Below the pieces are notes generated by a model. That model was given only the letters and a program-made list of their open reading frames with translations, was not told the DNA's origin and ran no database searches. Of a DNA stretch of 64,000 bases, positions 45,858 to 60,814 are shown one piece after another. The first letter of the stretch is position 1; each line of letters starts with the position of its first letter. Source of the DNA: a virus; the IMG/VR virus record IMGVR_UViG_3300003324_000465, positions 42,877 to 106,876 of that record; one strand, given 5' to 3'. The position numbers and the translations under genes were made by a program.

Positions 45858-45936
45858 GGGATGCCATGGTGTCGATTAGGCGTAAAAACCAAAGTGAGCG
45901 CTTAACATGCGAGTTCGAGTCTCGTGCATTCCACCA
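45858..45936 (+). ncRNA. tRNA-like RNA without a canonical anticodon loop
   Basis: GGGATGC/GCATTCC-ACCA acceptor and GCGAG-TTCGAGT-CTCGT T arm, but no 7-nt anticodon loop. Confidence 0.55.
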
Positions 45937-46133
45937 AAATATTTGACAAGTTCCATCAGTAAAAATACTGGCGCGCTTATTGATAACAGTTTACCGTATA
46001 AGATATATCTGAATACGGAACGTATGTTGCAAGCGTAATACATGCACTTCACATTGAGCAATTGCATGACGTGAGATGTGATAGTATATGGACATGCAAA
46101 ATAATTGTGAATCACATTATAGAAAGGTATATA

Positions 46134-46328
46134 ATGTTTAATTGGTATATTGCAATTATAGTTTTCATTAGTTTTCTAAATTTACTTTACATCCCGTTTG
46201 ATCCTATTACTAAACGTTTAGCTTGGTGGGAAATTGTATTAAAATTTGTACTTGATGTACTAAGAGTAGCGGTTGTTTGGTCTATTATCTTTGCTTTTAT
46301 AAAGCTTATGATGTGGGTATTTTCTTGA
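46134..46328 (+). CDS. small membrane protein
   Basis: AAAGG SD before MFNWY; two hydrophobic segments. Confidence 0.55.
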   Translation: MFNWYIAIIVFISFLNLLYIPFDPITKRLAWWEIVLKFVLDVLRVAVVWSIIFAFIKLMMWVFS

Positions 46329-46335
46329 TGTATAT

Positions 46336-46420
46336 GCAAGTGTAGCGTAATTGGTAACGCATCACTCTGTAAAAGTGACACCTAAGGGCATTGTAGGTTC
46401 GAGTCCTATCACTTGCACCA
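46336..46420 (+). tRNA. tRNA-Tyr(GTA)
   Basis: Full cloverleaf, TCACT-CTGTAAA-AGTGA, long variable arm, CCA. Confidence 0.9.
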
Positions 46421-46685
46421 CTGATATAAAGTAAAACGGCTACAGAGTTATGTAGCACTTTATATCAAATCATTGGAATACTAGCTGCGAGTTACACGCG
46501 CCGTAACCTTGTATTCCATTTAATCAGCGCGGTTTGTACGTTAAACGGATAAGGAGTTAAAGGAAACGTACATGTAGGTTTGTGTCGTTTATAATAAAGC
46601 GTAGGAGAGTGCGTATGGATTATACTCGTTACTGATTTACATTTTATGCCGTGAATATTCTAGATAATTCCCGGCCCATTATTAT

Positions 46686-46759
46686 ACAGAATGAAGTGTA
46701 ATGGTAGCACCCGTATTTTGGGAATATGGAGAGCAGTTCGATTCTGACATTCTGTACCA
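46686..46759 (+). tRNA. tRNA-Pro(TGG)
   Basis: CGTAT-TTTGGGA-ATATG, GTTCGATTC, CCA; weak T stem. Confidence 0.8.
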
Positions 46760-46995
46760 TTAAATAACATAGGCTATGCCAGTGTGTACGCTTAAGCAAC
46801 AATGCTTCTCTGAATCAAGCACATGTGAGAAGATGTTATTTATATCAGTGAATATAATGTAAGCACTTATAAGAGTGATTCCTTATAAGATAGACGCGGG
46901 CAAAATATTCAAAAGACAAGATCATAATAGATTAAAATTTATTTCATCTCTATTGTTTATTACGGATAATATCAATCTATTATGATCATCATTAT

Positions 46996-47070
46996 GCGTC
47001 AATGATGTAATTGGTAGCATATTGCTCTCCAAAAGCAAGCGTTAGGGTTCAAATCCTTATTGACGTGCCA
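46996..47070 (+). tRNA. tRNA-Trp(CCA)
   Basis: TTGCT-CTCCAAA-AGCAA, CCA end. Confidence 0.9.
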
Positions 47071-47207
47071 TATATAATATAGCGGTTTATAGAATTACAA
47101 CGCTTACCAAACACCAAGCTATAATACGTTCGATTCGTATATGGGCTAATGGAAAACCTCTCGCAAGAGAACTGCCCACATATTCTATAAGATATTCGTA
47201 TTATATA
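47071..47207 (+). ncRNA. Y-RNA-like RNA 1
   Basis: Terminal stem, AGCGG, second stem, TACAACG, internal T-loop hairpin TACG-TTCGATT-CGTA, TATTC; upstream of Ro60. Confidence 0.75.
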
Positions 47208-47220
47208 AAACAAACACATA

Positions 47221-47331
47221 TACTGTAGCGGGAAAAATGCAATACAACGTTTATTTGATTAATAAAACACACTACGTTCAAATCGTACACTTGGGTTGGT
47301 TATCCCTTTTTGCTTTTTCATATTCACAGTA
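47221..47331 (+). ncRNA. Y-RNA-like RNA 2
   Basis: TACTGT/ACAGTA, AGCGG, TACAACG, T-loop TACG-TTCAAAT-CGTA, ATATTC. Confidence 0.75.
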
Positions 47332-47358
47332 ATTATAATATTTGCGGGCAATATTTAC

Positions 47359-47431
47359 GGAAACATGGTGTAAGCAGCATACATCTAGGAATAGATGAGG
47401 CGTAATGGGTTGGACTCCCACGTTTCCATCA
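47359..47431 (+). ncRNA. tRNA-like RNA with a GGAA-capped anticodon arm
   Basis: GGAAAC/GTTTCC acceptor, CATCTA-GGAA-TAGATG, TGGG-TTGGACT-CCCA. Confidence 0.5.
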
Positions 47432-47436
47432 CATAC

Positions 47437-47564
47437 AATACTATGTAGCGGAAAAATCCTTTACAACGAATAACATATGCCTTGTTAATGTGGTGATACA
47501 CGTAAAAATATTCTGCGATGCGCTACAGTTACGCATTATAGGATTTTTATATTCGCATAGCATT
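47437..47564 (+). ncRNA. Y-RNA-like RNA 3
   Basis: CTATGT/GCATAG, AGCGG, AAAAATCCT/AGGATTTTT, TACAACG, ATATTC. Confidence 0.75.
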
Positions 47565-47630
47565 CAAAAGAAAAAAAAACATTATTAAATGGTTTTATCG
47601 ACTTGCCAAATACAAGTATAATATTTAATT

Positions 47631-47768
47631 TTCTGTAGCGGATGTCAGCGATTACAACGCATTACGAGCGGGTGATTGTAGGTTCGAGTCCTACTGTCTG
47701 TACCATGTATACAGACATAGCTTAATGGCAAAGCACCTAAAATATATCGCGGGCAATTATTCACAGAA
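47631..47768 (+). ncRNA. Y-RNA-like RNA 4 (YrlA-like, permuted tRNA domain)
   Basis: TTCTGT/ACAGAA, AGCGG, TACAACG; T arm, then acceptor stem, then D arm. Confidence 0.85.
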
Positions 47769-47781
47769 GAACAATGATAAT

Positions 47782-47869
47782 AAGCTGCTACAGCGGAAAT
47801 ACAAGTACAACGAATATTTTTAGACAAAATTAACCGTAAACACCTTGTATTTAATATCCGTAGCAGCTT
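47782..47869 (+). ncRNA. Y-RNA-like RNA 5 (minimal)
   Basis: AAGCTGCTAC/GTAGCAGCTT, AGCGG, AAATACAAG/CTTGTATTT, TACAACG, ATATCC; followed by a T-run. Confidence 0.75.
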
Positions 47870-48155
47870 TTTTTATGATTCATCAGCCAAGTATTCAAGA
47901 AAGGATTTTTTATGCTAGATTTTTTTAAAGCAACAGAAGAAAATGGTTTGCGTTTTACTTCATGATGGTGATTATATGTGGATAACTGAAAACGAAGCAT
48001 TTTCAGGACAGCCTATTATTGCTACTGCAGTAATGTATAGGAATCATCCCTTAAGTGATTGGCAATTTGATGAAGAAAGTATCGATATACTAGATTCTAA
48101 GTATACTAAATAATTCGCGGGCAATTTATAAACCGTAGCAAAGGAATAAAATAAC

Positions 48156-49712
48156 ATGAGAAAAAATTTAACACAGGGATCAAAGAAAACAGTCAGTACA
48201 AAGCCGGTGGCACCAGTAGCCATGGGAGTAGCTCATAATCCTAATTATCGGTCAACACCAGTATCTTCATTTGAAGGCAATACTAACTATAAGCTTGATC
48301 CAATTGCAACATTGAAACTGGTAACTGCAAGTTCATTTTTTGGTGAGCCTTCTTTTTATGAAGGAAATACACGTACAGCGTTATTTGAACAGACAATTGA
48401 CGCGGCCCTTGATTATGATTTTTATGCGACACTTGATTGGGCTGGTGTATTACGTAATGCGTATTATATGCGCCTTAATCCTCAAATCATCATGACAAGA
48501 GCAGCAGTGCATCCAAAGCGTGGTGAGTTTACAAAACAATATCCCGGCGCATTTAATACATTTATGGAAATTGTTGCGAAAAGACCGGATGATCTTACTG
48601 CACAGGTAGAATATTACTTGTCAAAGTTTGAAGATCGTAAGGTTCATGGGGTTAAAGCCTCTCGTATGCCTGGAATTATGAAGCGTTCAATAGCACACCG
48701 TCTTGAGCAATTTAATCGTTATCAAATGGCGAAATATGCTAATCGTGGTATCGGTTTAATTGATATAGTTCGTTTAACACATGCTCATGGAGCATTAATT
48801 AACGAACTTATGAAAACTGGCGGAATTAGTATCGATGAGGAAGACCAAACATGGCGTACTATGCGTAGCGCTGGTAAGTCATGGACAGAGATTATTAATT
48901 CAGGCATCACACTAACACACCAAGATATACTTTTTCAAATGCGTTCTATTTTTGATTCTGTTAAGGGTGATACTGCTCAATATATTGCGGGCAAATTTCT
49001 TAATGGGGTCAAGAATGGTAAAATGTTCCCATATCAGTATTATATTGCTTTTCAGCAATTGAGTGAGGATACATTCAGTAATAAGATACTAGCGTTAGAT
49101 ACACTTCAAGAAGCCCTTGATATGTCTATTCGAGAACAGCCAAAATTAGGCGGAAGTGTTGCGGTTGTGGCAGATAATAGCGGATCTATGAATAATCCAC
49201 TTAAAGTAGACGGTCATCAAGTTACAGCAGCGGAAGTAGCTAATTTATCTGCAATTATGACAGCCTACAATGCTACTGATGGAGATGTATTCTCGTTTGG
49301 TACCACGTTAGCAAAGTTATCATATAGCAAGCGTGATGGTATAATGACAAATGCAAAACGGCTTGCTGATTTATCTACTGGATGGGGCACAAATATGGGA
49401 TTGTTCTGGCAATACGCTATACAACATAAAAAGAGTTATGATACCGTATTTGTATATAGTGATATGCAAGCTCTACCTGTTTCTGGATACGGTTATAACA
49501 ACGAAGTAAGAAACATGTATGACATTGTGAACGAATATCGCCGCAAGCTAAATCCAAAGGTAAATGTTTTCTACGTGCAAGTAGCAGGCTATGATAATAG
49601 TGTACAACCAGATAATACATATCGTGCAACTAACCTGTCTGGATGGACAGGTAAAGAGGTTATGTATGCTGCTGCTGTAAATGCTGTGTGGGATGAAGTA
49701 GATAGTAAATAA
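48156..49712 (+). CDS. Ro60/TROVE domain RNA-binding protein with vWA domain
   Basis: SFFGEPSFY, YYMRLNP, RPDDL, YQMAKY, DIVRLTH, FPYQY, vWA MIDAS ADNSGSM, GTN, YSDMQ, LSGW. Confidence 0.92.
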   Translation: MRKNLTQGSKKTVSTKPVAPVAMGVAHNPNYRSTPVSSFEGNTNYKLDPIATLKLVTASSFFGEPSFYEGNTRTALFEQTIDAALDYDFYATLDWAGVLRNAYYMRLNPQIIMTRAAVHPKRGEFTKQYPGAFNTFMEIVAKRPDDLTAQVEYYLSKFEDRKVHGVKASRMPGIMKRSIAHRLEQFNRYQMAKYANRGIGLIDIVRLTHAHGALINELMKTGGISIDEEDQTWRTMRSAGKSWTEIINSGITLTHQDILFQMRSIFDSVKGDTAQYIAGKFLNGVKNGKMFPYQYYIAFQQLSEDTFSNKILALDTLQEALDMSIREQPKLGGSVAVVADNSGSMNNPLKVDGHQVTAAEVANLSAIMTAYNATDGDVFSFGTTLAKLSYSKRDGIMTNAKRLADLSTGWGTNMGLFWQYAIQHKKSYDTVFVYSDMQALPVSGYGYNNEVRNMYDIVNEYRRKLNPKVNVFYVQVAGYDNSVQPDNTYRATNLSGWTGKEVMYAAAVNAVWDEVDSK

Positions 49713-49755
49713 AGGATAAAGGCGCGCAGAGATAATATCAAAGCGCGTTTTATAA

Positions 49756-49830
49756 TGCAGAATCAGCTAATAGGTAGGTTGGTACTCTCTGAAAGTGCCT
49801 GTACAGGTTCGAGTCCTGTTTCTGTAACCA
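49756..49830 (+). tRNA. tRNA-Gln(CTG)
   Basis: GTACT-CTCTGAA-AGTGC, GGTTCGAGTCC, CCA. Confidence 0.8.
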
Positions 49831-49841
49831 AAGGAATTTTT

Positions 49842-50081
49842 ATGAAACATTATATTTTGTTGTTACATACTTCTATACCTAGATATTTTGCGGGCGAGTT
49901 TATTTATAGTGATTTAGTAGATGGTACAACATTTGTAGAAATAGAATGGACAAAACAAATGTCCATGGCTACACCTATGACATATGAGGAAGTCAATCAA
50001 TTAAAAACATGGTGTGATCAGTATCGAAGCGAGTTTACACAAATACTAGATACATCTCTGGAAATTATAATGCAGCCGTAG
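49842..50081 (+). CDS. hypothetical protein
   Basis: AAGGA SD before MKHYIL; the ORF-track start overlaps the tRNA. Confidence 0.6.
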   Translation: MKHYILLLHTSIPRYFAGEFIYSDLVDGTTFVEIEWTKQMSMATPMTYEEVNQLKTWCDQYRSEFTQILDTSLEIIMQP

Positions 50082-50090
50082 AATATCTCT

Positions 50091-50177
50091 ATAACGTCAC
50101 CAGCGCCTTCCTAAGAGGCGATAGGATCAAAGTGGTATCTTGGTATGGGTAGAATATCCTGAGCCTTCTGGTGAAAA
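50091..50177. repeat. dispersed inverted-repeat-bounded element, copy 4 (inverted)
   Basis: Reverse complement TTTTCACCAGAAGG...CTGGTGACGTTA aligns with the ends of copy 1. Confidence 0.65.
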
Positions 50178-50203
50178 ATAATAGCAGAAATATTCATAAA
50201 AAT

Positions 50204-50270
50204 CTTAACTAAATCTTAACGAAAATTGCCCAAATTGCCTATTGACTCCGGTCCATGGGCGTGGTAATAT
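50204..50270 (+). promoter_or_regulatory. sigma-70 promoter with upstream CTTAAC direct repeats
   Basis: TTGACT(50242)-N17-TAATAT with extended TG; CTTAAC at 50204 and 50215. Confidence 0.75.
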
Positions 50271-50326
50271 ACACACATAAGAAATGACGACGGCGGAACA
50301 AGCGATAACAGACAGGAGAAAACAAA

Positions 50327-50419
50327 ATGAAAACTATTGTTCGCACTCCGAAGGGTAGCGCTCGTGTTGGTCCTATGACCGCTAAGTATCTGAAGTATAT
50401 CCAATACAGCGGCGCGTAG
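50327..50419 (+). CDS. 30-aa basic peptide
   Basis: AGGAG SD, MKTIVRTPKGSARVGPMTAKYLKYIQYSGA, hairpin at the stop. Confidence 0.55.
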   Translation: MKTIVRTPKGSARVGPMTAKYLKYIQYSGA

Positions 50420-50432
50420 TAATCTACGCCGT

Positions 50433-50962
50433 ATCTCTCACTAGTATGTTTTCCTAGTGCAGTATAGTGAGATGTATCTAAACTAGGACGCGGAATAAAT
50501 GAATCGTAACAATTGCGAAACTGATAGCTAATTGCTTAGGCAAGCGGTGACGCAGATAGGTGTTACGTGGAGTTGTTAACTACTAATCAATGAAGCTGTA
50601 GGCAACATGCGTTATGTGGAGATTAGAATAATAGCTAACAGCGAAAGAGCAACAAGAGTCGCAAGCTCCGTGCTGTGGATTTGCTGCACAGCGTTAACAT
50701 GCAGAATGGGTACAATAGGTTATGAAATGTTTCTATTGTATGGCTCTGCAATAACATTTCCCGCGTTGTATTAAACTCGCTATTTGACGTACACGCGGTT
50801 ATAATAATAGTGATGGTACTCTGCCCATTTAGAGCCTTACCTTTAAGCTGTAAGCGTAAGTAATCAGCAGAGAGACAGCTATTGACAAATGCTCATGTAC
50901 GCTACTATAAAAATGGATGACACCACAGTAAAATACAGAGTGTAGCTTAGAGTTTGTCAATA
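50433..50962 (+). ncRNA. candidate large structured ncRNA (family unassigned)
   Basis: ORF-free 530 nt with nested stems, e.g. ACGCGG(AAT)AAATG/CATTTCCCGCGT and TATTGACAAA/TTTGTCAATA. Confidence 0.45.
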
Positions 50963-51026
50963 TTGCGAGCAATTATTTGTAAAGTGTACGTTACTGTGTG
51001 CTGTATCTCTCAAAGGATGAATATAT

Positions 51027-51103
51027 GCCCGTATAGCCAAACTGGATGAAGGCACATGTCTACGAAACATGTAATGTGGGTTCGAGTCCTGCTACGGGTG
51101 CCA
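51027..51103 (+). tRNA. tRNA-Arg(ACG)
   Basis: CATGT-CTACGAA-ACATG, CCA. Confidence 0.9.
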
Positions 51104-51248
51104 ATTGATACAATACTATCATCATATTTCTCTATGCGGCCAATAGAGCCAAAAAGATATTTATTATCTTTTCCATAAACCATAAAAAAATGAATAGGTT
51201 TCATCATGTCAGTGATTATTCTGATTTATTAGAAGCATTAAATTTTGT

Positions 51249-51326
51249 GCCGTAATAGCAAAAGCTGGCTTTGCAGGGGCCTTTTAAGCCTTTTAAACGC
51301 GGGTTCGATTCCTGCTTACGGCACCA
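51249..51326 (+). tRNA. tRNA-Lys(TTT)
   Basis: GGGGC-CTTTTAA-GCCTT, CCA. Confidence 0.85.
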
Positions 51327-51436
51327 CTCATCCATGGAGTTTATCAATCATTTGTACATGGAGTAGTTATAAAAATAGTTGACTTCTATAATAATGCCCC
51401 GCAGATTATTATAGTCGTAATTACTTAGCGGGATAT

Positions 51437-51512
51437 GCCAGATTAACCTTATGTGGTAAAGGTTCTGTTTGAAGCACAGAAATAACGTGTTCGAGTCACG
51501 TATCTGGCACCA
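51437..51512 (+). tRNA. tRNA-Phe(GAA)
   Basis: TCTGT-TTGAAGC-ACAGA, CCA. Confidence 0.88.
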
Positions 51513-51647
51513 CGGAAGGCAATTATTTGTTATATCAAAATATACTGTCTGATCAACGGTATATGGAGATATGGCGGTATCTGATCAATATAGCGCATAG
51601 TTCTAGCGTAATGCTAGAATATATGGCAAATAAACCTTCAGTATTAT

Positions 51648-51723
51648 ACCAGTATAGCACAATTGGTAGTGTAGCAAGCTGTTAACTTGTATTGTCTAGG
51701 TTCGATTCCTAGTGCTGGTGCCA
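51648..51723 (+). tRNA. tRNA-Asn(GTT)
   Basis: GCAAG-CTGTTAA-CTTGT, CCA. Confidence 0.9.
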
Positions 51724-52045
51724 ATAATAGTATTGTTGATACATTTGAAAGTATAGTGGGCGGCTGAATATAAAGGCTTATCGTGTGAAAATAACGATAG
51801 CAATACTATTTTTATATACTGGTATACAAAATTGGTGATGTATATGTATAGTAAATTTATTCTACTGTTTCGGCGGAAGCATTACTTGTAACATGAATAA
51901 AGCCAGTATTTAATAACATAAATAATAATATGCTATCATTGTCCAAATGGAGATAATTGCTTTATATATGCTCTAAAAAGTGTATTTGTGCAGTGTTGAC
52001 ACGTTGAATAATTCGCGGGCAATTTATAAAAAAAGGATGTATGTT

Positions 52046-52312
52046 ATGAGATTGTATGATTTTATATTGTTACATGGAGATATTGAAGATTACATCGATT
52101 TTGGCTATAGCCTTAATAGTAATAGTAGTATAGAAGAGCGTGTAAATTATATTTTGGAACGATCTAAGTTTCAGAGTCTACTTAATACACTAGAATTATT
52201 AGCTTCGTTAAACACAACAAATGAAGTTGAACGTAGTTTATTGCTCGCGTCATATTCAAAGACAATTACATTAAAATCTATTTGCATAAAGTTTGGATGG
52301 ACTCTGAAATAA
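52046..52312 (+). CDS. hypothetical protein
   Basis: AAGGA SD upstream of MRLYDF. Confidence 0.55.
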   Translation: MRLYDFILLHGDIEDYIDFGYSLNSNSSIEERVNYILERSKFQSLLNTLELLASLNTTNEVERSLLLASYSKTITLKSICIKFGWTLK

Positions 52313-52341
52313 TAATCCGCGAATTATGAGAGGATATTGCT

Positions 52342-52512
52342 ATGTTAGATAAAGCAATTAAACACGGTAAAGAAAAACGTAAACCATATCGTAAATCTAA
52401 GGCATTTGATAAGTCTTGTCGTAATCATGGATATTGCCCATACTGCCGTAATAATAGACTTTTTAAGAATAAAATGCGCGCACTTATTACAAAAGATGAT
52501 ATAGAGGAATAA
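52342..52512 (+). CDS. small basic Cys/His phage protein
   Basis: Hand translation MLDKAIKHGKEKRKPYRKSKAFDKSCRNHGYCPYCRNNRL; GAGG SD; below the ORF-track cut-off. Confidence 0.7.
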   Translation: MLDKAIKHGKEKRKPYRKSKAFDKSCRNHGYCPYCRNNRLFKNKMRALITKDDIEE

Positions 52513-52515
52513 ATT

Positions 52516-52701
52516 ATGGTGATGGAAACAATGCTTATACATTATGGAGTTAGAGGGACTATTAAACTGTTAATAGCTGCATGCTGGAAAAAACATGAAC
52601 ATTACAAACCCCTAGAATCAGTGTTTTCGATATGGGCTAAAATACTTGAAAAGCACTTAGACTTAATGTATGAAGAATATCAAGAAAAGTTTAATCTTTA
52701 A
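52516..52701 (+). CDS. hypothetical protein, paralog A
   Basis: Closely similar to 52749..52931. Confidence 0.65.
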   Translation: MVMETMLIHYGVRGTIKLLIAACWKKHEHYKPLESVFSIWAKILEKHLDLMYEEYQEKFNL

Positions 52702-52748
52702 ATAAAATATGTGTACTTATTACAAAAGATGATATAGGATAATAGATA

Positions 52749-52931: not shown

Positions 52932-52932
52932 T

Positions 52933-53967: not shown

Positions 53968-54041
53968 GTCTCGTTAGCATAAAGGCCATGCACATATCTG
54001 CAAAATATGACATATCAGTTCAATTCTGATACGAGACTCCA
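53968..54041 (+). tRNA. tRNA-Cys(GCA)
   Basis: CATAT-CTGCAAA-ATATG, U73, CCA. Confidence 0.9.
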
Positions 54042-54081
54042 ATAAATAAAATGCGGGCAGTTTATTATGAAAGGAAACAGT

Positions 54082-54324
54082 ATGTACACGTTCAAAACAA
54101 TAGATGGTAAGGAGATTAAAATTCGTGATGTTATTGCTTATAACTCACGACGCGGTTTAGCTGTTGCTAAAGTTGTAGGATTTGTATATAAGCTAGATAG
54201 CTACAATAATAAGACTGTATCAACAATGCAAGTGCGTAGAATGAATAAATATCCTGATACAAAGCTTGCTTATTCAAAAACATCTCTTACAACTAAAGCG
54301 CAATGTGTTATCTTGGAAAGCTAA
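54082..54324 (+). CDS. hypothetical protein
   Basis: AAGGA SD before MYTFK. Confidence 0.6.
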   Translation: MYTFKTIDGKEIKIRDVIAYNSRRGLAVAKVVGFVYKLDSYNNKTVSTMQVRRMNKYPDTKLAYSKTSLTTKAQCVILES

Positions 54325-54369
54325 ATTCATTATTGCTGTCTATTATGCTTATAGTGCTAGGAAACGAAT

Positions 54370-54711
54370 ATGAAAGCGTTTATAGAATTACTTAATCCTA
54401 AAAATAACCAGAGAAAGAAGTTTGAAATAGATGTTATTGCTGAGAGCAAAGGACTAATATTACACAAGCGTGCATCAATAGATCATGAGGGTAACGTATA
54501 TTATCCTGAAAGGCAAGGCTATGTTATTTCCCATAGTGCTACAGGATGGTTTCTTATTATGAATAAAACATTGAAAAGTATTAAAGCGACTTTTCATGTA
54601 TTATCAGAGTTACCTATAGATTGGTCATTAGAAAGACCGCTAAATAATTTGCCCGTAGATATACGTCAAAAAATAGCAGAAATACGATCAAAATTTCATA
54701 CACAAATATAA
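54370..54711 (+). CDS. hypothetical protein
   Basis: AGGA SD, 113 aa. Confidence 0.6.
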   Translation: MKAFIELLNPKNNQRKKFEIDVIAESKGLILHKRASIDHEGNVYYPERQGYVISHSATGWFLIMNKTLKSIKATFHVLSELPIDWSLERPLNNLPVDIRQKIAEIRSKFHTQI

Positions 54712-54724
54712 TATAATATACTAT

Positions 54725-54889
54725 GTCCTTATAGCATAGAGGTAATGCACATATCCTACAGCGATGTAGATGCAAGATATGGTCATATTTGAGAGTAGAT
54801 GCTAACGTGTGAGTAAGTGATCATAATGTTCAGCGTATGCAGTATGGTAGATAATATGCAGAGGGTTCAAGTCCCTTTTAAGGACTCCA
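54725..54889 (+). ncRNA. 165-nt tRNA-Cys-derived RNA with two insertions
   Basis: GTCCTTA/TAAGGAC-T-CCA acceptor, D arm, CATAT..GCAAG.ATATG, T arm; extra hairpin in the anticodon loop and about 80 nt in the variable region. Confidence 0.7.
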
Positions 54890-55307
54890 CTTCGGTTTTT
54901 ACCGAAACTATGTATATAGTTTAAGTAGCATTGTTCTATATACATAGAAAAACCATGCTTCAAGTTGCTGGATTTCTCTAAACCAGTAGTAATCTAGTTG
55001 AAGGTATCCTATAAACCTTATCGTAAACATCTAAGCGTTAGTATGATGTAAGTTGTAAATGTATAAACTCAAATTTACAAGCACATATATAGTTTTATCA
55101 AACCGTTCTATATGTGTGTTAAAACGGAACCGTTGCTTACTTACGTAAATGTATGACATTGCGGGAGCAATCAAAATATCCGCTGTTCTGAGCTTGCAGA
55201 AGGTTTTATTGCATTTATATCCTTAATAGATTGCACGCGAAAATCTAAGCGTAATAAGAGATGTAAGTTAGTGGGTATGATAAACTGAAACCTACTCTTT
55301 ATAATAC

Positions 55308-55379
55308 GGGCGCAATTTATTAGTAGAATGCACATAGTAACTCTATGAGGCGACGGTGCGAATCCGTATGTGTCCACCA
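55308..55379 (+). ncRNA. tRNA-like RNA with a 5-nt anticodon loop
   Basis: GGGCGCA/TGTGTCC-ACCA, CATAG-TAACT-CTATG, ACGG-TGCGAAT-CCGT. Confidence 0.55.
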
Positions 55380-55829
55380 AAGCATGGTAATACATGCTCA
55401 CAGTATAATAACGGCGGCATTGAATGAGTTCTAGCATAAAGGATAGGATGCCTTTATGGTATAGATAAATAAGATATGACCAGCTAGTAAAGAAGGTGTT
55501 ATACTGTTTGAAGCCGGTTATAGTTGCAACCTTTATGTATCTTTTAGTCAAAGCCAGTGGTTATAGCATTGCTTTATGAGACTGGATAACGTTAATAGCG
55601 TTGAAGTGAGCATGCAACAGAAAAAGACAATATACATAAAGATAATCGGCGGGGGTAAAATATCAGGGACAAGTATTATATCTGGACAGATACATGCCGG
55701 ATATATGGGAGACATTAGGATGCTGAACGGCCTAATTACCTGATATAGTTGTATGCACTTTATCACTGTATGCGTCAAAGTGATATATAATCTGCGCGCA
55801 GTTTATTAGCTGCTATAAAGCAGATATAT

Positions 55830-55907
55830 GCGTATCTACTCCAATAAGGTAGAGAGAACTGTTTCAAAAACAGTAAAGTATCGGTTCGAGTCCGTTGATA
55901 CGTACCA
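55830..55907 (+). tRNA. tRNA-Leu(CAA), short variable loop
   Basis: ACTGT-TTCAAAA-ACAGT, CCA. Confidence 0.85.
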
Positions 55908-55930
55908 AAATCATTATATAAGAGGTAAAT

Positions 55931-56119
55931 ATGTTTATTATCTATGGTCGTTATAATGAAAATGCTACATATACTGATAATTTTATGTGGGATTTATCAG
56001 AAGCAAAAGAATATGTGAACAAAATTGCATGTGAAAATGAGCATAAAAATGTAATCCAGTATGAAGTACATGATAGTGATGGCTTACAATATGCAGTAAG
56101 AGCTGGTGAATGTAAATAA
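55931..56119 (+). CDS. hypothetical protein
   Basis: GAGG SD. Confidence 0.6.
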   Translation: MFIIYGRYNENATYTDNFMWDLSEAKEYVNKIACENEHKNVIQYEVHDSDGLQYAVRAGECK

Positions 56120-56125
56120 CTATAT

Positions 56126-56200
56126 GCCCTATTTCGTCTAATGTAGGACATCAGCAGTGAGAAAGCTGAAAACGCTGGACAAATCCAGCTATGGGCACCA
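56126..56200 (+). ncRNA. tRNA-like RNA with a 9-nt anticodon loop
   Basis: GCCC/GGGC-ACCA, GTCT/GGAC D arm, TCAGC-AGTGAGAAA-GCTGA, T loop lacks TTC. Confidence 0.55.
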
Positions 56201-56330
56201 TTGTGTTATGTATAAAATTAGCTATGCAAAACGTGTTATTTCTATGTGAAGCACTACTATAATCATAGAAACCAGCGCTGATGCCGCTTATATCTATGTA
56301 GTACGGATATAAGACATAACACTAAATTAT

Positions 56331-56408
56331 GCACGTATAGCCCAATTAGGTAGAGGCAACACGTTTAGACCGTGTATAGTGTAGGTTCGAGTCCTATTAC
56401 GTGTACCA
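56331..56408 (+). tRNA. tRNA-Leu(TAG), short variable loop
   Basis: ACACG-TTTAGAC-CGTGT, CCA. Confidence 0.88.
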
Positions 56409-56709
56409 GTATAGTTGTATAAAATTGCTTATGTATCCGTATGTCCACTAAACTAATGTGTGCTGATAGGGTTTAGTCTATGCGGTGCGGCGCGTACAGT
56501 ACACAGCACACTGTTACGACAACTATATAAAGATATTCCCTAAAAATATTCTATAAGCAATTATGGGTATCAGAATACCAGATTGCAAAATTCATCAATT
56601 CTGAGCCTTCCTGTAAAATAGGCATTATTTTATACAGCATTACAAAGCCGTAAAATAATCAAAGAAATAATATAAAAATAAAGCAGGCTTATAGAAAACT
56701 GATAAAAAT

Positions 56710-56754
56710 CTTAACCAATTTTCTATGGACAACCTACGGAAAGCATGCTATACT
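56710..56754 (+). promoter_or_regulatory. sigma-70 promoter with upstream CTTAAC box
   Basis: TGGACA(56726)-N17-TATACT with extended TG; spacer resembles that of the 45618 promoter. Confidence 0.65.
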
Positions 56755-56875
56755 GCTCTCAAATAATTCGCGGGCGCTTATTAAGAAATGATAATACGAT
56801 GGATGTGACATGGCTTTTTGTAGGATTAGGTATTGTGTTTTTGTCTTGGATAGATTGAAGAAGGATAAATAAGTT

Positions 56876-57112
56876 ATGATTGTTGTTATTGACGATGTTA
56901 ATGGATATTGGAAAAAAGAAAAAGGATGGTCTGTTAATTTGACTGATGCCGCTACTTTTTCTTCTTCTACTAATATTCCAGAAAATTTAATCAATATTTG
57001 GCGCGCATCGTATAATTCTAATGTGTATGTGCTTCCTATTGAAGCTGCAAAACCAGATTCAAAAGATGTAGATTTATCGTTAGCTACATACATACATAAA
57101 ATACAAATTTAA
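56876..57112 (+). CDS. hypothetical protein
   Basis: AAGGA SD; GWSVNLTDAATF resembles motifs in 62472.. and 63207.. Confidence 0.55.
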   Translation: MIVVIDDVNGYWKKEKGWSVNLTDAATFSSSTNIPENLINIWRASYNSNVYVLPIEAAKPDSKDVDLSLATYIHKIQI

Positions 57113-57179
57113 TCCTTTGTGTATAGATAGCATCATTATGATATGATATACTATTTGTACTGTAGTGAAAAGGATTACC

Positions 57180-57611
57180 ATGCTAGGGAAACAAATAGAT
57201 CAAAATACAGCATGTACACTTATAGCTTTGGATGATATGTTTGAAGCTACGGGTATTCAATGGGGTCAAGATTTTCTTGAGGATTATTTCTTAGAACAGG
57301 GTAACATCGGCTTTGATATAAAACATTTTTATCTTATTGAAGAAAGCGCACCAATTAAACTTTTTCAGAGTGCTGGCGGTGATTTTACATCTATGTGGTA
57401 TCAAGGTGATCTATATTGGACTTTGATAGATAACAATACAGGTATAAGATACAGAATAGGTAAGAACACTAAAATTGTACTTACTTATAAAGATAAATTA
57501 ATTGTGCATTCTGTATGTATTCCTGCACATACCGTAAATAACTATTTAAATCATTTTGAATTTGTTGCTTTATTCTTACCGTTATATGGTTTAATCGTAG
57601 ATAATATATAA
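57180..57611 (+). CDS. hypothetical protein
   Basis: AAGGA SD before MLGKQ. Confidence 0.6.
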   Translation: MLGKQIDQNTACTLIALDDMFEATGIQWGQDFLEDYFLEQGNIGFDIKHFYLIEESAPIKLFQSAGGDFTSMWYQGDLYWTLIDNNTGIRYRIGKNTKIVLTYKDKLIVHSVCIPAHTVNNYLNHFEFVALFLPLYGLIVDNI

Positions 57612-57637
57612 TCTGTGGGCGAATTATAAGAAAGGAT

Positions 57638-57829
57638 ATGTTTATGACGATGGAAGACTATGCAATTAAATCATTCAAAGTAGATCAACAAGAAGGTGAG
57701 TGGACTAAAGATATGCAATTCTACGATTTACCAGAAGAAGAAATTTATCTGTATTGGGAAGAAGCTTTAGCATACCTCAGATTACCTGAAGAGGAATGGA
57801 TAGATTTTGCTTTCTATGGAGTAGAATAA
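57638..57829 (+). CDS. small acidic protein
   Basis: Asp/Glu- and aromatic-rich 63 aa. Confidence 0.55.
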   Translation: MFMTMEDYAIKSFKVDQQEGEWTKDMQFYDLPEEEIYLYWEEALAYLRLPEEEWIDFAFYGVE

Positions 57830-57853
57830 ATAAACGGCGCGCAATTATTATAT

Positions 57854-57925
57854 GGGGTGTTAGTGATAATGGGAGCACGTAATACTTGCAATATTACAGA
57901 AACGGATCGTAACCGTTACACTCCA
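57854..57925 (+). tRNA. tRNA-Ala(TGC)
   Basis: G3.U70 pair, TAATA-CTTGCAA-TATTA; followed by CTA rather than CCA. Confidence 0.85.
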
Positions 57926-57944
57926 CTATTTAGAAAGGTGATAT

Positions 57945-58190
57945 ATGCTGGATGATGATTATATATACTATGCTGTAACTGTACTAGCTTATAATGTGCA
58001 TACAGGCGAAGTTGTTATAGGGACAACATGTGGTCGAAGCCCTAAAAATAATGTTTCTAAGTATGATAGAGAGGAATCATTACGACAATCTCTATTGAAA
58101 CACGCTAAAAAAGATTTTCCTGAACAGCATTTTTATGGACATAAAGTATTAATATGTGAAATACCAGAAGAAGGGTTTCAAGATTTATGA
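57945..58190 (+). CDS. hypothetical protein
   Basis: AAGGTG SD, coupled to the next ORF. Confidence 0.55.
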   Translation: MLDDDYIYYAVTVLAYNVHTGEVVIGTTCGRSPKNNVSKYDREESLRQSLLKHAKKDFPEQHFYGHKVLICEIPEEGFQDL

Positions 58191-58372
58191 AACACAATGC
58201 AATCGAGTCTATTTTTGCAGTTGATCAGCGTGTTAAAGTTATTAAAGGTGATTATTCAGGTAAAGAAGGCGTTATTCAGCGTTTAGGAGCAGCAGGATCA
58301 GTAATTTATGTACATGTCCTATTGGACGGTGCTATTACAGTTTTGACCTTTAGTGAAAGTCATTTAGAATGA
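58187..58372 (+). CDS. KOW-motif small protein
   Basis: DQRVKVIKGDYSGKEGVI. Confidence 0.6.
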   Translation: MKHNAIESIFAVDQRVKVIKGDYSGKEGVIQRLGAAGSVIYVHVLLDGAITVLTFSESHLE

Positions 58373-58560
58373 AAACTTATTTTGTACGTTTAATCGAATA
58401 CGAAGGTAAGAACAGGGTAATTAGAGAGGCTATTGAAATCTACGCGGATCACTATGATGTAGATGGTAACAATAATCTTATATTTTATGGTACACAGGAA
58501 GATAAGTCTACGTTTGTAATTATGTACCATTCATATAATTGGTTTTCTGTGGAATTATGA
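58369..58560 (+). CDS. hypothetical protein
   Basis: ATGA-coupled ORF. Confidence 0.55.
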   Translation: MKTYFVRLIEYEGKNRVIREAIEIYADHYDVDGNNNLIFYGTQEDKSTFVIMYHSYNWFSVEL

Positions 58561-58994
58561 TTAAAAAGTGTACTAAATGTGGTATTGAGAAAGCTGAATC
58601 TGAATTTAATTGGAGAAATAAATCAAAGGGTGTACGTCAATTTGCTTGTAGGGTGTGTACTAAATTAGAGGTAAATGCAACTAGGAAAGATTTGGATGGT
58701 AAAATTAAACCTAAATATTCATATCCTAGTAAAGTTAAAGAAAGAAAACGCCAGTTAAGATTATGGCTGCAAACTAAAAAGAAATCTCTATCTTGTATTA
58801 TTTGTGGATTTTCTCATCCAGCAGCATTAGATTTTCATCATCGCAACCCTAGTAATAAGACCATAGAAATAACAACAGCTATAGAACATGGATACTCGAT
58901 AAATAAGCTTGAAAAGGAAATAGCTAAATGTGATGTTCTTTGCTCTAATTGTCATAGAATATTACATTATAATGAACGCGGCGGTATCGTTTAA
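58557..58994 (+). CDS. HNH endonuclease
   Basis: KKCTKCG, CIICG..ALDFHH, EIAKCDVLCSNCHRILH. Confidence 0.9.
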   Translation: MIKKCTKCGIEKAESEFNWRNKSKGVRQFACRVCTKLEVNATRKDLDGKIKPKYSYPSKVKERKRQLRLWLQTKKKSLSCIICGFSHPAALDFHHRNPSNKTIEITTAIEHGYSINKLEKEIAKCDVLCSNCHRILHYNERGGIV

Positions 58995-59054
58995 TGGCAA
59001 GGACAATTGCCTTTCAAGCAATGAATTGGAGTTCGATTCTCCATACCGCTACCA
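58980..59054 (+). tRNA. tRNA-Glu(TTC)
   Basis: ATTGC-CTTTCAA-GCAAT, CCA; overlaps the HNH stop. Confidence 0.88.
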
Positions 59055-59316
59055 GTTATACATAAAGATTATTAAGCATGGGTAGATACATGTGTGTTTC
59101 TGTAGTGACCTTTACTATATCTAACATACAGGAAAGATAGTATTTATGTATATACATGCGCGCTATGTAATTAAGTCTTTTATATCTATAATGACTAGCT
59201 ACTAGCATGGCCCTGTAGATAATTCCGTAAGACATAGGCGGTGATACTCTACATGTTGGTTGTTTTTCTATATGAATGCTACATATAGAAAGGGTATAAA
59301 AGCCGCGCATTATTAT

Positions 59317-59392
59317 GGCTCTATGGTATAATGGTTCATTATAACAGCCTGTCAAGTTGTAGATAGCAGTTCAATTCTGCTTAGGGCCGCCA
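59317..59392 (+). tRNA. tRNA-Asp(GTC)
   Basis: ACAGC-CTGTCAA-GTTGT, G73, CCA. Confidence 0.88.
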
Positions 59393-59593
59393 TTAAAAGA
59401 AAGAGACATAGCTAAATGAAATTGCTGTGTAGCGTTATTTTAAGAATTTCCATAGGATTTATGTATGTAGATTCTTTTCTATTTCGTGTTCATAAGAGAT
59501 ATATTTCAGAATTAAATGCTAATGAAAGGATTGCATTTATACTGATCTTCCTATTTATCCTTATAGTTACCATTGAACATGCAAAACAATATA

Positions 59594-59917
59594 ATGATTG
59601 TGAATGACACTGATCTTGAAAAGTATGGACAGCGTTTAATATCGCGGCGCATATTATTTGCAGAAGAAGCATATATTAGTAATAAAGATGGATATGTATT
59701 TATGCCGCTGGTGGATGATGTTATTTTAGACGTTGGATCTGGAAGGATGTATAGAATACTATCCGACAATAAAAGAAGAGTCAATATTAAATTCTTATCA
59801 AGAGAATATAGACATCTAAAAACAGATACATGGGATTTTCTTAATAGAATTGATCCTATAACACATTTATATATACCAGAGATGAATCTACACAGAAGAA
59901 AAAGAAAGGGAACATAA
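59594..59917 (+). CDS. hypothetical protein
   Basis: Plus-strand ORF in the operon; start uncertain. Confidence 0.5.
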   Translation: MIVNDTDLEKYGQRLISRRILFAEEAYISNKDGYVFMPLVDDVILDVGSGRMYRILSDNKRRVNIKFLSREYRHLKTDTWDFLNRIDPITHLYIPEMNLHRRKRKGT

Positions 59918-59921
59918 TATC

Positions 59922-60122
59922 ATGGAAAAAGCTTTAGTTGCAGCACTCATTATGCTCACTATTTCAATGGGGTTTCAGTTATATACAATAGTAGTCAATT
60001 GGAGTAATGATGATATATCTGCTGTTTTAGGTTTAGGATTTTCTATTATTGTATGGCTCATTATTATGGGCGCATCTATTCATTATATGACTTCTATCAT
60101 GCCTTTACTATTGGGAAGATAG
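59922..60122 (+). CDS. small membrane protein
   Basis: Two hydrophobic segments. Confidence 0.55.
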   Translation: MEKALVAALIMLTISMGFQLYTIVVNWSNDDISAVLGLGFSIIVWLIIMGASIHYMTSIMPLLLGR

Positions 60123-60123
60123 C

Positions 60124-60492
60124 ATGATACATTATGGCATGAATCGTTTTGTATTTACGTTTGGACATTATGTCATAAAATTTCCTATATTTTGGCGCGA
60201 CGACCAAGCATTTATTCGCGGATTGTTATCTAATATACTAGAGCGTGTACGCTATAAACTATCACATAAACATCCTGCACTTATGCCTATAATATACTGT
60301 TTTCCTTTTGGGTTATTTCTTATTATGCGTAGATGTCCTATAATATTGCGCCGCAAATTAACAACGGAAGAATTAGAAGAATTACCATTTATCAATATAG
60401 ATAATAATGAGCGTAATATGGGAATATATAAACATCATATTGTGTGGTTTGATTATGGTAATCCTGATATGCGCTTAAAGGAGATAACGTGA
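60124..60492 (+). CDS. minimal protein-kinase-like protein
   Basis: YVIKFP, N..E, IDNNERNMG, WFDYG in kinase motif order. Confidence 0.55.
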   Translation: MIHYGMNRFVFTFGHYVIKFPIFWRDDQAFIRGLLSNILERVRYKLSHKHPALMPIIYCFPFGLFLIMRRCPIILRRKLTTEELEELPFINIDNNERNMGIYKHHIVWFDYGNPDMRLKEIT

Positions 60493-60686
60493 AAGACTTA
60501 TACATATTTTATTTTGTATATAATGGTGATGAAGATAAGTATGCGGGTATATTAAGTGCTATAGCAATAGCTGAAACAGAAGAAAAAGCGCGCAAATTAT
60601 TTAATAAACATCAATCTGAATCGTTACGTTTACAACATAAAAAACCAATTAAGACAAAAGTTATCGATATTAGGTGGGGTAGATAA
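60489..60686 (+). CDS. hypothetical protein
   Basis: GTGA-coupled, AAGGAG SD. Confidence 0.55.
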   Translation: MKDLYIFYFVYNGDEDKYAGILSAIAIAETEEKARKLFNKHQSESLRLQHKKPIKTKVIDIRWGR

Positions 60687-60690
60687 TAAA

Positions 60691-60814
60691 GATGCTATAA
60701 GTCTAACCGATAATGGACGTAATGTTTATTATAGGATGATCTCTATAATGGACTGTACGTAAAAAGACCGTTTGATCAATGGTCTCAATGAGCGTTCGAG
60801 TCGCTCTAGCATCT
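60691..60814 (+). ncRNA. elongated tRNA-like RNA (about 124 nt)
   Basis: GATGCTA/TAGCATC acceptor, GAGCG-TTCGAGT-CGCTC T arm, long anticodon-position hairpin and 8-bp variable arm. Confidence 0.65.

Follow-up and report, generated by a model that had tools for sequence, protein, structure and literature searches.

Six tRNA-derived, probably non-decoding elements in the tRNA island of an uncultured phage

The 107-kb genome of an uncultured phage contains a tRNA island in which 27 called tRNAs are accompanied by six further tRNA-like elements, referred to here as c1 to c6. The question raised by this locus is whether these elements serve the phage as RNAs or are remains of tRNA genes. The earlier note on the window (the whole stretch of 64,000 nucleotides analysed) had regarded them as one class of tRNA mimics, with paired acceptor and T stems and with damage concentrated on the anticodon loop, and had proposed that they act as decoys of anticodon nucleases or as ligands of synthetases or Ro60.

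The six elements and their tRNA character

All six elements were retrieved on the + strand, which is the coding strand of the island, at most 13 nt from where they had been placed before:

c1, 45845–45936, + strand: acceptor/T minihelix, remodelled in between, with ACCA; T arm at 45909–45925
c2, 47358–47431, + strand: small pseudo-tRNA; lies between Y modules 2 and 3
c3, 54725–54889, + strand: paralog of tRNA-Cys(GCA); T arm at 54861–54877, 3' end U73-CCA
c4, 55308–55379, + strand: small pseudo-tRNA; acceptor GGGCGCA/UGUGUCC-A-CCA (G3.U70, A73)
c5, 56126–56200, + strand: pseudo-tRNA with ACCA; 9-nt anticodon loop, arm at 56151–56169
c6, 60690–60814, + strand: class-II body resembling tRNA-Ser(UGA), without CCA

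ARAGORN called none of the six with default settings. With relaxed thresholds, c1, c2, and c4 were called with odd arms, and when introns were allowed at the default threshold, c3 was the only intron-type call in the whole genome. In the Rfam tRNA search, c5 and c4 reached 27.5 and 16.4 bits, respectively (gathering score 29), and c2, c3, and c6 gave no match; c1 scored 18.6 bits against the Rfam tRNA-Sec model. Compared with the phage's own tRNAs, all six elements scored 3–6 SD above shuffled sequences. Furthermore, strict T-arm motifs outside the called tRNAs were found seven times on the + strand, all at 45.9–60.8 kb, and once on the − strand, a bias in strand and location indicating that the uncalled T-arm elements are not due to chance. 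A CCA was indeed encoded in four of the elements (c1, c3, c4, and c5), and was absent from c2 and c6. At the sequence level, the elements are likely tRNA-derived genes unable to decode, as had been proposed. They are surplus, since the 27 tRNAs called by ARAGORN already serve all 20 amino acids.

Remodelled and damaged elements

The idea of a single class was not borne out, and half of the elements show scattered damage. Two groups were distinguished, namely group A (c1, c3, and c6), remodelled rather than eroded, and group B (c2, c4, and c5), broadly damaged and tRNA-sized. The paired acceptor and T stems ascribed to all six were present throughout group A (acceptor 7/7, T stem 5/5, canonical T loops) and largely in c4 (7/7 and 4/5), but not in c2 (6/7 and 4/5) or c5 (acceptor 4/7, aberrant T loop). 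Similarly, the claim that damage concentrates on the anticodon loop did not hold for group B, whose lesions extend to the T or D loop, the linker or the acceptor.

Folding of the group A elements was favoured on the + strand over the − strand by 8.6–10.3 kcal/mol, with four to seven G.U pairs used. This difference was 8.6 kcal/mol for c1 (T loop UUCGAGU; MFE −32.5 kcal/mol, z −3.0), in which either GGAATGC at 45845 or GGGATGC at 45858 can serve as the 5' acceptor strand; the long form is the more stable one and has A3-U70. Element c6 (MFE −42.9 kcal/mol, z −5.5) combines an 8-bp acceptor, a 17-bp anticodon arm with a 6-nt loop (60717–60760), an 8-bp variable arm (60765–60785), and a canonical T arm (60790–60806). 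Element c3 (z −1.95) carries a 15-nt GCGA-capped hairpin (54756–54770) immediately 5' of a kept UGCAA (54771–54775), and an insert of approximately 75 nt (54784–54858) with the closing stem CATATT/AATATG. Two called tRNAs served for comparison:

tRNA-Cys(GCA), 53968–54041, + strand: parent or paralog of c3
tRNA-Ser(UGA), 61318–61406, + strand: own tRNA nearest c6 in D region and T arm

The D region and T arm of c6 resemble those of tRNA-Ser(UGA), with 14 of 15 positions identical in a blastn match. With the hairpin removed, the core of c3 is identical to the phage tRNA-Cys at 36 of 42 positions, versus 18–26 on the same scale for the tRNA-Cys cores of relatives. Its uppermost three acceptor pairs, U73, and UGCAA are those of tRNA-Cys, and its remaining stems are changed: both partners have been replaced in each of the four lower acceptor pairs and the five T-stem pairs, with pairing kept. 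These nine compensated stem pairs were counted as evidence that the stems of c3 may be under selection.

The intron-type call raises the possibility that c3, and perhaps other elements, are working tRNAs from which the inserts are removed, resulting in a second tRNA-Cys. Indeed, removal of the 15-nt hairpin would restore a 7-nt CUGCAAG loop and removal of 54784–54858 a short variable loop, and the 'enigmatic introns' of Lak megaphages (PMC6784885) provide a precedent. However, each insert would have to be cut out on its own at a non-canonical site, both inserts are far below the size of group I/II introns, neither RtcB nor a splicing endonuclease was found among the subset of ORFs scanned, a normal tRNA-Cys lies 680 nt upstream, and simple excision yields no canonical tRNA from c1 or c6, making this explanation very unlikely.

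In group B, c2 (z −1.6) has a 6-bp stem with a GGAA cap (47382–47397), the T loop UUGGACU (C56 changed into G), and the tail AUCA. Element c4, whose seven acceptor pairs include two G.U pairs, lacks the U8-A9 linker and has the T loop UGCGAAU, with G at position 55. Its anticodon loop measures 5 nt, extending to 7 nt if an A.A mismatch is allowed in the stem, and its T arm is identical to that of tRNA-His at 15 of 17 positions. The acceptor of c5 gains two pairs (6/7) if one base is bulged, and its T loop is shortened and non-TPsiC. The D-loop GG is absent from all three, and no strand asymmetry of folding was found for c2 and c5.

Origin and possible roles

The scattered lesions of group B would fit the view that all six are functionless, dead duplicates heading for deletion, their intact stems reflecting youth or chance. 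Also in line with this view, no homologs of the elements were found in any collection searched, and the conservation expected in related phages was not encountered at two of the loci, as the nearest syntenic relative (L086; Rsr 48% identical) contained no counterpart at the positions of c1 or c2, which was counted as evidence that these two are dispensable. In addition, uncalled T-arm elements outside the Y modules had a frequency (4 per 22 tRNAs, 0.18) similar to that in four tRNA arrays of phages picked as presumed rsr-free controls (12 per 84 tRNAs, 0.14). Decay of all six is nevertheless unlikely, in view of the 9/9 compensation in c3, the well-paired, G.U-using, strand-specific inserts of c1, c3, and c6, and the z of −5.5 of c6. 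Moreover, phage genomes usually lose useless DNA quickly.

The explanation preferred here, if tentatively, is that c1 to c6 are surplus, non-decoding duplicates of tRNA genes of the phage itself, of which some have been retained for a processing or structural role and others are in decay. Duplication inside the fast-evolving 27-tRNA island would have been followed by loss of decoding ability. In group A, the anticodon or variable region would have been replaced or expanded by well-paired hairpins formed only on the transcribed strand, and the group B elements, with lesions in several arms, look like decaying pseudo-tRNAs. The island is probably transcribed as polycistrons of ORFs and tRNAs, and the acceptor/T minihelix would be the part read by RNase P and the 3'-end maturation enzymes, so that the elements may still be excised, thereby setting the 3' end of the upstream mRNA. 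The group A elements would last as stable tRNA-like RNAs, and selection on the minihelix alone would leave the anticodon region free to vary.

Three of the elements start shortly after a + strand stop codon, namely c3 (13 nt), c5 (6 nt; ORF 55931–56119), and c6 (3 nt; ORF 60489–60686), as do true tRNAs of the island (Tyr 7, Ile 1, Ser 0 and 0, Ala 24, and Gln 43 nt); c1, c2, and c4 do not adjoin ORFs. Such adjacency is expected of anything located in short intergenic gaps, which counts against it as evidence for punctuation.

A pure processing signal needs no elaborate, well-paired inserts such as those of c3 and c6, and the synthetase identity features of c3, c4, and possibly c1 hint at a role beyond punctuation. 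These features involve one further called tRNA:

tRNA-Ala(UGC), 57854–57926, + strand: compared with c4 and short-form c1 at the top of the acceptor

Within the set of 27 real tRNAs, G3.U70 is unique to tRNA-Ala. The AlaRS set (G1-C72, G2-C71, G3.U70, A73, and CCA) is present in c4 and in short-form c1, c3 keeps the tRNA-Cys features mentioned above, and c6 keeps a long variable arm. According to established E. coli identity-element work, AlaRS and SerRS ignore the anticodon. The synthetase-ligand idea of the earlier note thereby gained a lead from c4, short-form c1, and c3. The elements might then be chargeable, non-decoding mimics, which would either carry amino acids or capture tRNA-targeting defence enzymes in the manner of a decoy or sponge; phage tRNAs have been proposed to counteract host tRNases (PMC10264068, PMC11555353). 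This role is rather improbable, as c1 in its more stable, long form has A3-U70, c6 has neither G73 nor CCA, c2 and c5 display no recognisable identity set, no such mimic was seen in a list, read by eye, of relatives' uncalled elements with free acceptor ends, and decoying catalytic toxins would take very high abundance. Within it, enzymes acting on the acceptor end are more plausible targets than anticodon nucleases. A decoy of the latter, as put forward before, is not supported, since it would need the anticodon loop that the elements lack, judging from substrate recognition by PrrC, VapC, and colicins; nothing in the sequences analysed shows decoy action of c1 to c6.

The Ro60 suggestion found part of its basis in an intact gene and Y RNAs in the same island, given here as context:

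Ro60/Rsr gene, 48156–49712, + strand: 518 aa; PF25045 (E 4.8e-8) plus a weak TROVE match
Five Y-RNA modules, 47071–47880, + strand: array with c2 in one spacer

At E <= 1e-20, about 2000 homologs of Rsr were retrieved, among them proteins named 60 kDa SS-A/Ro; Rsr is 39% identical to gp540 of Bacillus phage G. The Y modules share the layout [H1]-AGCGG-[H2]-TACAACG...ATATTC-[H1'] (four matches versus 0.06 expected), and their array includes a YrlA-like permuted tRNA (47645–47756; RF02553, 30.1 bits, E 4e-4). The elements could be clients or partners of Rsr, serving as effector modules of the Y type or, if misfolded, as substrates whose free 3' ends are threaded into the Rsr cavity. Complete tRNA bodies with a capped Y scaffold replacing the anticodon arm occur in distant Rsr phages (16 covarying pairs; 12 strong matches inside bodies with a 7-bp acceptor and NCCA), and rsr loci hold approximately 3.4 times as many uncalled T-arm elements per tRNA as the four control arrays. 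Also, CAGCG occurs twice in c3 (0.10 expected), one copy sharing CAGCGAT with the YrlA-like module. However, a Ro60-docking scaffold, whether of the phage's own Y modules or of the relatives' tRNA-shaped Y RNAs, was present in none of the six elements: AGCRG...TACWWC is confined to the five modules, and the capped-scaffold covariance model gave no match in the window with filters off. In addition, c3 to c6 lie 5–11 kb from rsr, beyond the 4-kb distance rule used for YrlA (PMC4201824). A role as Rsr clients is hence rather improbable.

Comparison with known systems

As surplus duplicates, c1 to c6 resemble the pseudo-tRNA or 'tRNA-OTHER' genes of T5-like phages, such as Pectobacterium phage My1, in being tRNA-derived, in sharing one strand of a tRNA island where small ORFs are interspersed, and in being overlooked or flagged by tRNA finders. 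They differ in that c1, c3, and c6 are expanded by structured inserts, not merely mutated, and in that the stems of c3 have diverged from its parent with full compensation. The 'enigmatic introns' reported in tRNA genes of Lak megaphages (Devoto et al. 2019, PMC6784885) are, like the inserts of c3, too small for group I/II introns, but c3 carries one insert at positions 32/33 and a second in the variable region; splicing is putative in both cases. YrlA-type Y RNAs (RF02553; Chen et al. 2014, PMC4201824) likewise mimic tRNAs, their genes lying close to that of Ro60 and in the same orientation, and they have T and D arms and an acceptor-like stem in common with the elements. However, they are circularly permuted and end in a Ro60-binding helix, with a loop-closed acceptor stem, whereas c1 to c6 have free acceptor ends and no such scaffold.

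The tRNA-shaped Y RNAs of relatives, in which the anticodon arm of a tRNA body holds a grafted Ro60-docking helix, come close in their whole tRNA body, free acceptor-CCA end, replaced anticodon arm, and presence in phages with rsr; their capped scaffold (ATATTC-hairpin-AGCAG-helix-TACTTCA) is absent from c1 to c6. Finally, tRNAs punctuate polycistronic transcripts in animal mitochondria and in bacterial tRNA-mRNA operons. Such a role does not need elaborate inserts, and processing is putative here, but in both cases tRNA-like structures adjoin coding regions (here 0–13 nt after stop codons), and only the part recognised by RNase P must be intact.

The tRNA island and its surplus tRNA-like elements

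The window comprises the final 64 kb of a 106,876-bp IMG/VR virus record, a 25-bp terminal overlap of which indicates that the assembly is effectively circular. The GC content of the window is about 34%, and genes coding for ribonucleotide reductase, DNA polymerase, terminase, portal protein, and amidase were present. On the + strand, a tRNA island extends from 45.7 kb over the contig junction; of the 27 tRNAs that ARAGORN retrieved in the genome (the whole record), 22 are in the window, and together the 27 cover all 20 amino acids. Inside this island, an intact Ro60/Rsr gene (rsr) was found, the product of which is 39% identical to gp540 of Bacillus phage G. In addition, the island contained six surplus tRNA-like elements, referred to as c1 to c6, that decode nothing.

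Surplus tRNA-like elements and Ro60-related features of the island
45845-45936, + strand: c1, no canonical anticodon arm
47358-47431, + strand: c2, anticodon loop of 6 nt, or GGAA tetraloop
47645-47756, upstream of rsr: YrlA-like RNA, Y module 4 (RF02553, 30.1 bits, E 4e-4)
48156-49712, inside the island: rsr, intact (PF25045, E 4.8e-8; ~2000 homologs at E <= 1e-20)
54725-54889, + strand: c3, anticodon loop split by a 15-nt hairpin
55308-55379, + strand: c4, anticodon loop of 5 nt, or of 7 nt with an A.A mismatch and U37
56126-56200, + strand: c5, anticodon loop of 9 nt
60690-60814, + strand: c6, anticodon arm of 17 bp with a 6-nt loop

The tRNA-Leu genes with the anticodons CAA and UAG (55830-55907 and 56331-56408) are 78 nt long and of class I shape, lacking the long variable arm, unlike tRNA-Leu(UAA) (genome 1525-1611), which displays the usual class II shape. 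The T loop of the tRNA-Ala(UGC) gene (57854-57926), AUCGUAA, is unusual, and this gene does not encode CCA; a G1.U72 wobble tops the acceptor stem in 13 of the 27 tRNAs. Five tRNAs in the first 12,000 nt of the genome continue the island across the contig junction, accompanied by genes for a 366-aa vWA-domain protein (2140-3240) and an RNase H-like (RVT_3) protein (4723-5157). The sequence GCGGGCAA was found at 15 sites in the window versus 0.56 expected, 13 of which are on the + strand (e.g. 46896, 47344, 47749, and 48117); among these sites, one stops 7 nt short of c2, another forms the end of the YrlA-like module, and a third precedes the start codon of rsr by ~33 nt. GCGGGCAA is a candidate promoter or processing motif of the phage. 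Scans with promoter and terminator consensus sequences gave counts not exceeding those of shuffles. The ORF-poor region between tRNA-Gln and tRNA-Arg (50458-51006) had no Rfam match at E <= 10, and neither RtcB nor an RNA ligase was encountered in the subset of island ORFs scanned with Pfam.

All six elements pointed out in the earlier note were present, and CCA was indeed encoded in four of them (c1, c3, c4, and c5). None was a canonical tRNA, taken as an Rfam RF00005 score of at least 29 bits or an ARAGORN default call, and none possessed a canonical 7-nt U33 anticodon loop on a 5-bp stem. With its default settings, ARAGORN called none of the six; with relaxed settings, it called c1, c2, and c4 with aberrant arms. 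When introns were allowed at the default threshold, c3 was the sole such call in the genome. Against the Rfam tRNA family (RF00005), c5 scored 27.5 bits and c4 16.4 bits, both below the gathering score of 29; c1 matched tRNA-Sec only (18.6 bits), and no Rfam tRNA match was obtained for c2, c3, and c6. Outside called tRNAs, the + strand contained seven strict T-arm motifs, none of them beyond the island, versus a single one for the - strand. This strand and island bias, together with the detection results, indicates that c1 to c6 are derived from tRNAs and did not arise by chance.

Two groups of elements and their ancestry

The sequence features of c1 to c6 are real but heterogeneous, and they define two groups rather than the single class of tRNA mimics with damage concentrated on the anticodon loop proposed before. 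A 7-bp acceptor stem, a 5-bp T stem, and a T54-Psi55-C56 loop occur together in c1, c3, and c6, the half of the set for which this argument holds, and not in c2, c4, and c5, in which lesions affect several arms. In the former group, all seven acceptor pairs and all five T-stem pairs are formed and the T loops are canonical. Element c1 has an ACCA end and a remodelled middle part. Its acceptor can be formed with either of two 5' strands, offset by 13 nt, and pairing with the upstream strand gives the stabler fold (-32.5 versus -22.9 kcal/mol). Element c3 has a normal D arm; a hairpin capped by GCGA is contained within its anticodon stem, and a large insert, closed by a stem, precedes the T arm. 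In c6, besides the long anticodon arm, the acceptor stem and the variable arm are both 8 bp long and the T arm is canonical; the z-score of its fold is -5.5. The + strand of these three elements folds 8.6-10.3 kcal/mol better than its complement, with 4-7 G.U pairs, which indicates that the structure forms in the RNA, on the strand presumably transcribed.

Two other identities were rejected. A mini-tmRNA function of c1 is contradicted by the absence of a tag frame in its 79-92 nt and of any tmRNA call by ARAGORN; the G3.U70 pair of a tmRNA tRNA-like domain is found only in the less stable short form of c1. Similarly, c3 is not a suppressor tRNA, as the UCA reading of ARAGORN might imply, since the ORFs are intact under code 11 and homology with tRNA-Cys places GCA at the anticodon.

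The elements of the other group are tRNA-sized, with lesions at several places. In c2, six of the seven acceptor pairs are formed, G56 and the 6-nt anticodon loop are present, and both the D-loop GG and the CCA are missing. Element c4 lacks the U8-A9 linker and has G55 and a T-stem mismatch, whereas c5 forms four of the seven acceptor pairs (six with one bulge) and has a shortened T loop in addition to its 9-nt anticodon loop.

Duplication and divergence of island tRNA genes is the best-supported origin of the six elements. Indeed, all six resembled the phage's own tRNAs at 3-6 SD above shuffles. After removal of its 15-nt hairpin (54756-54770), c3 matches the phage tRNA-Cys(GCA), located ~680 nt upstream (53968-54041), at 36 of 42 positions (positions 8-49), versus only 18-26 on the same scale for the tRNA-Cys genes of related phages, indicating a specific paralogy and not a general constraint on tRNA-Cys. 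The hairpin is placed between nucleotides 32 and 33, with UGCAA intact directly after it. The top three acceptor pairs and U73-CCA are the same in both genes. In the remaining four acceptor pairs and throughout the T stem (five pairs), c3 differs on both strands yet stays paired. The D region of c6, as well as its T arm (14/15, blastn match), resembles tRNA-Ser(UGA), 500 nt downstream, and 15 of the 17 T-arm positions of c4 agree with tRNA-His. A mobile-hairpin origin of the inserts is unsupported, as the insert sequences of c1 to c6 are not repeated elsewhere in the genome. In this account, c1, c3, and c6 are remodelled copies that are probably still processed as stable tRNA-like RNAs, and c2, c4, and c5 are decaying copies.

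Relatives, Ro60, and Y RNAs

Megablast and blastn searches against 50,697 phage records returned tRNA-sized matches only and no close relative, Rsr and portal peptide scans of IMG/VR found no relative, and nhmmer searches with each of the six elements against 71 metagenome loci gave no match at E < 1. The closest Rsr homologs were 50-53% identical. A metagenome scan and a genome scan with an Rsr alignment yielded 91 loci (34-52% identity). In most of the long ones, rsr is embedded in an array of tRNA genes of its own strand, and tRNA-Gln often comes next, as it does in the window. The closest two of these loci, L085 (LDIY01000027.1; 52%) and L086 (LDIY01000019.1; 48%), are short contigs of one soil TM6 (Dependentiae) MAG, which may hint at the host or be a binning artefact. 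L086 (6.5 kb, GC 34%, phage-like) is the closest syntenic locus, with the order Met, ORFs, Pro, Trp, four Y modules, rsr, Val, and Leu. It has no element after Met and none among its Y modules, so that c1 and c2 are absent from the nearest syntenic relative and the conservation test proposed earlier turned out negative there. Searches of the MAG holding L086 did not recover the ORFs next to c3 and c6, and its other tRNA-bearing contigs contained no counterparts.

The YrlA-like RNA is one of five Y-RNA units (Y modules) upstream of rsr (47071-47880), and the other four have AGCGG-N-TACAACG in common with it. The modules are laid out as [H1]-AGCGG-[H2]-TACAACG-cargo-[H2']-ATATTC-[H1']. T arms are contained in three of the five cargos. 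In L086, the four modules lie at 2103-2700, one of them using AGCAG. The Ro60-binding helix of YrlA and other Y RNAs (RF02553) carries a GNCGAA-type motif, represented here by AGCGG...TACAACG opposite ATATTC; the corresponding sequence (AGCRG...TACWWC) was found in the window at 47081, 47227, 47447, 47637, and 47792 only, and not in or flanking c1 to c6. Concerning proximity, YrlA RNAs are sought on the same strand at less than 4 kb from Ro60 (PMC4201824), a distance within which c1 and c2 fall (2.2 and 0.7 kb upstream of rsr, respectively); c3 to c6 lie 5-11 kb downstream.

Distant Rsr loci, with 291 tRNAs in total, contained 140 + strand and 4 - strand uncalled T-arm motifs; 12 such motifs accompanied 84 tRNAs in four phage tRNA arrays chosen as controls and assumed to lack rsr. 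With the three in Y modules subtracted, the window holds 4 uncalled T-arm elements per 22 tRNAs, which is near the control rate. Many of the elements in the distant loci are tRNA-shaped Y RNAs of 130-155 nt, with a full tRNA body (7-bp acceptor stem, D arm, T arm, and NCCA) and an anticodon arm consisting of helix-ATATTC-hairpin-AGCAG-helix-TACTTCA.

Conserved tRNA-shaped Y RNAs of 135-155 nt with CCCA ends in distant Rsr loci (locus:positions)
L021:2203-2353
L021:2571-2720
L029:8060-8213
L029:8228-8362
L043:9138-9288
L045:8497-8646
L050:808-946
L050:952-1089
L077:8337-8488
L077:8496-8632

An alignment of ten copies displayed 16 covarying pairs. A covariance model of the capped scaffold (R1; 10 relatives, 13 base pairs), with scores of 62-78 bits for its source relatives, gave 67 matches in Rsr loci. 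Of these, 66 share the strand of rsr, several are situated ~150 nt upstream of it, and 12 fall within tRNA bodies; no credible match was obtained in the four control arrays. Judged from these sequences, the structure that replaces an anticodon arm in Rsr phages can serve Ro60 as a docking site. With filters off, the best match of R1 on 45000-64000 was 10.5 bits (E 1.2), and none overlapped c1 to c6. The Ro60-ligand role suggested for the six elements is possible but unsupported, both the scaffold motif and R1 matches being absent from them. The only hint toward Ro60 consists of two CAGCG copies in c3 (0.10 expected), one of which is CAGCGAT, common to the YrlA-like module.

Possible roles and known systems

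Elements c3, c5, and c6 start 13, 6, and 3 nt, respectively, after a + strand stop codon, a slot also taken by true tRNAs (46328-61318; Tyr 7, Ile 1, both Ser 0, Ala 24, and Gln 43 nt). These tight gaps suggest tRNA-punctuated polycistronic transcripts, in which RNase P would separate ORFs and tRNAs, the acceptor/T minihelix alone being sufficient.

AlaRS and SerRS are independent of the anticodon, and G3.U70 is sufficient for AlaRS in Escherichia coli. Among the 27 real tRNAs, G3.U70 occurs in tRNA-Ala only. Element c4 unambiguously carries the tRNA-Ala identity set that AlaRS would read (G1-C72, G2-C71, G3.U70, A73, and CCA), as does c1 if its 5' end is at 45858; the stabler long form of c1 has A3-U70. 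The occurrence of this set in two of six elements versus none of 26 tRNAs (p ~0.03) would also be explained by inheritance from an Ala-type ancestor. Together with U73 and GCA of c3, these sets suggest that the retained parts are those that synthetases read.

A function as decoys for anticodon nucleases, as proposed before, is unlikely: c1 to c6 lack the very loop by which such nucleases would recognise them. Acceptor-end enzymes would be a better fit as decoy targets. In a further, though improbable, reading, the phage maintains c1, c3, c4, and perhaps c6 as non-decoding tRNA mimics that can be charged or engage Ro60. It is based on the acceptor top and discriminator base being kept (Ala-type G3.U70/A73 twice, Cys-type U73 plus GCA) while the decoding arm became structured modules. 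If true, these elements would be aminoacylatable decoys or Rsr clients, guarding or monitoring the phage tRNA pool during host tRNA-directed defence.

Phage tRNA islands are now viewed as a counter-defence against host tRNases, and tRNA-like genes discarded by finders are seldom examined. The present case indicates that such genes can be separated by sequence alone into plain decay and remodelled copies, the latter retaining precisely what RNase P and synthetases read. If expressed, the remodelled copies would offer a cheap experimental entry to non-decoding tRNA mimics in a Ro60/Y-RNA phage; if not, they would be a useful calibration for tRNA-mimic calls elsewhere.

A counter-defence role of phage tRNAs has been documented (PMC10264068, PMC11555353), and short 'enigmatic introns' have been reported in phage tRNAs (PMC6784885). 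Spliced c3 would be a second tRNA-Cys, but ARAGORN proposes a single intron (73 nt, anticodon UCA), in conflict with the homology to tRNA-Cys, according to which there are two inserts and two excisions would be needed; c1 and c6 give no canonical cloverleaf upon intron removal. Finally, the combination of phage Ro60 and YrlA RNAs is already known, from 22 phages (Chen et al. 2014, PMC4201824), and the anticodon-arm scaffold of the tRNA-shaped Y RNAs is a loop-closed, circularly permuted form of the Y-module scaffold of the window.
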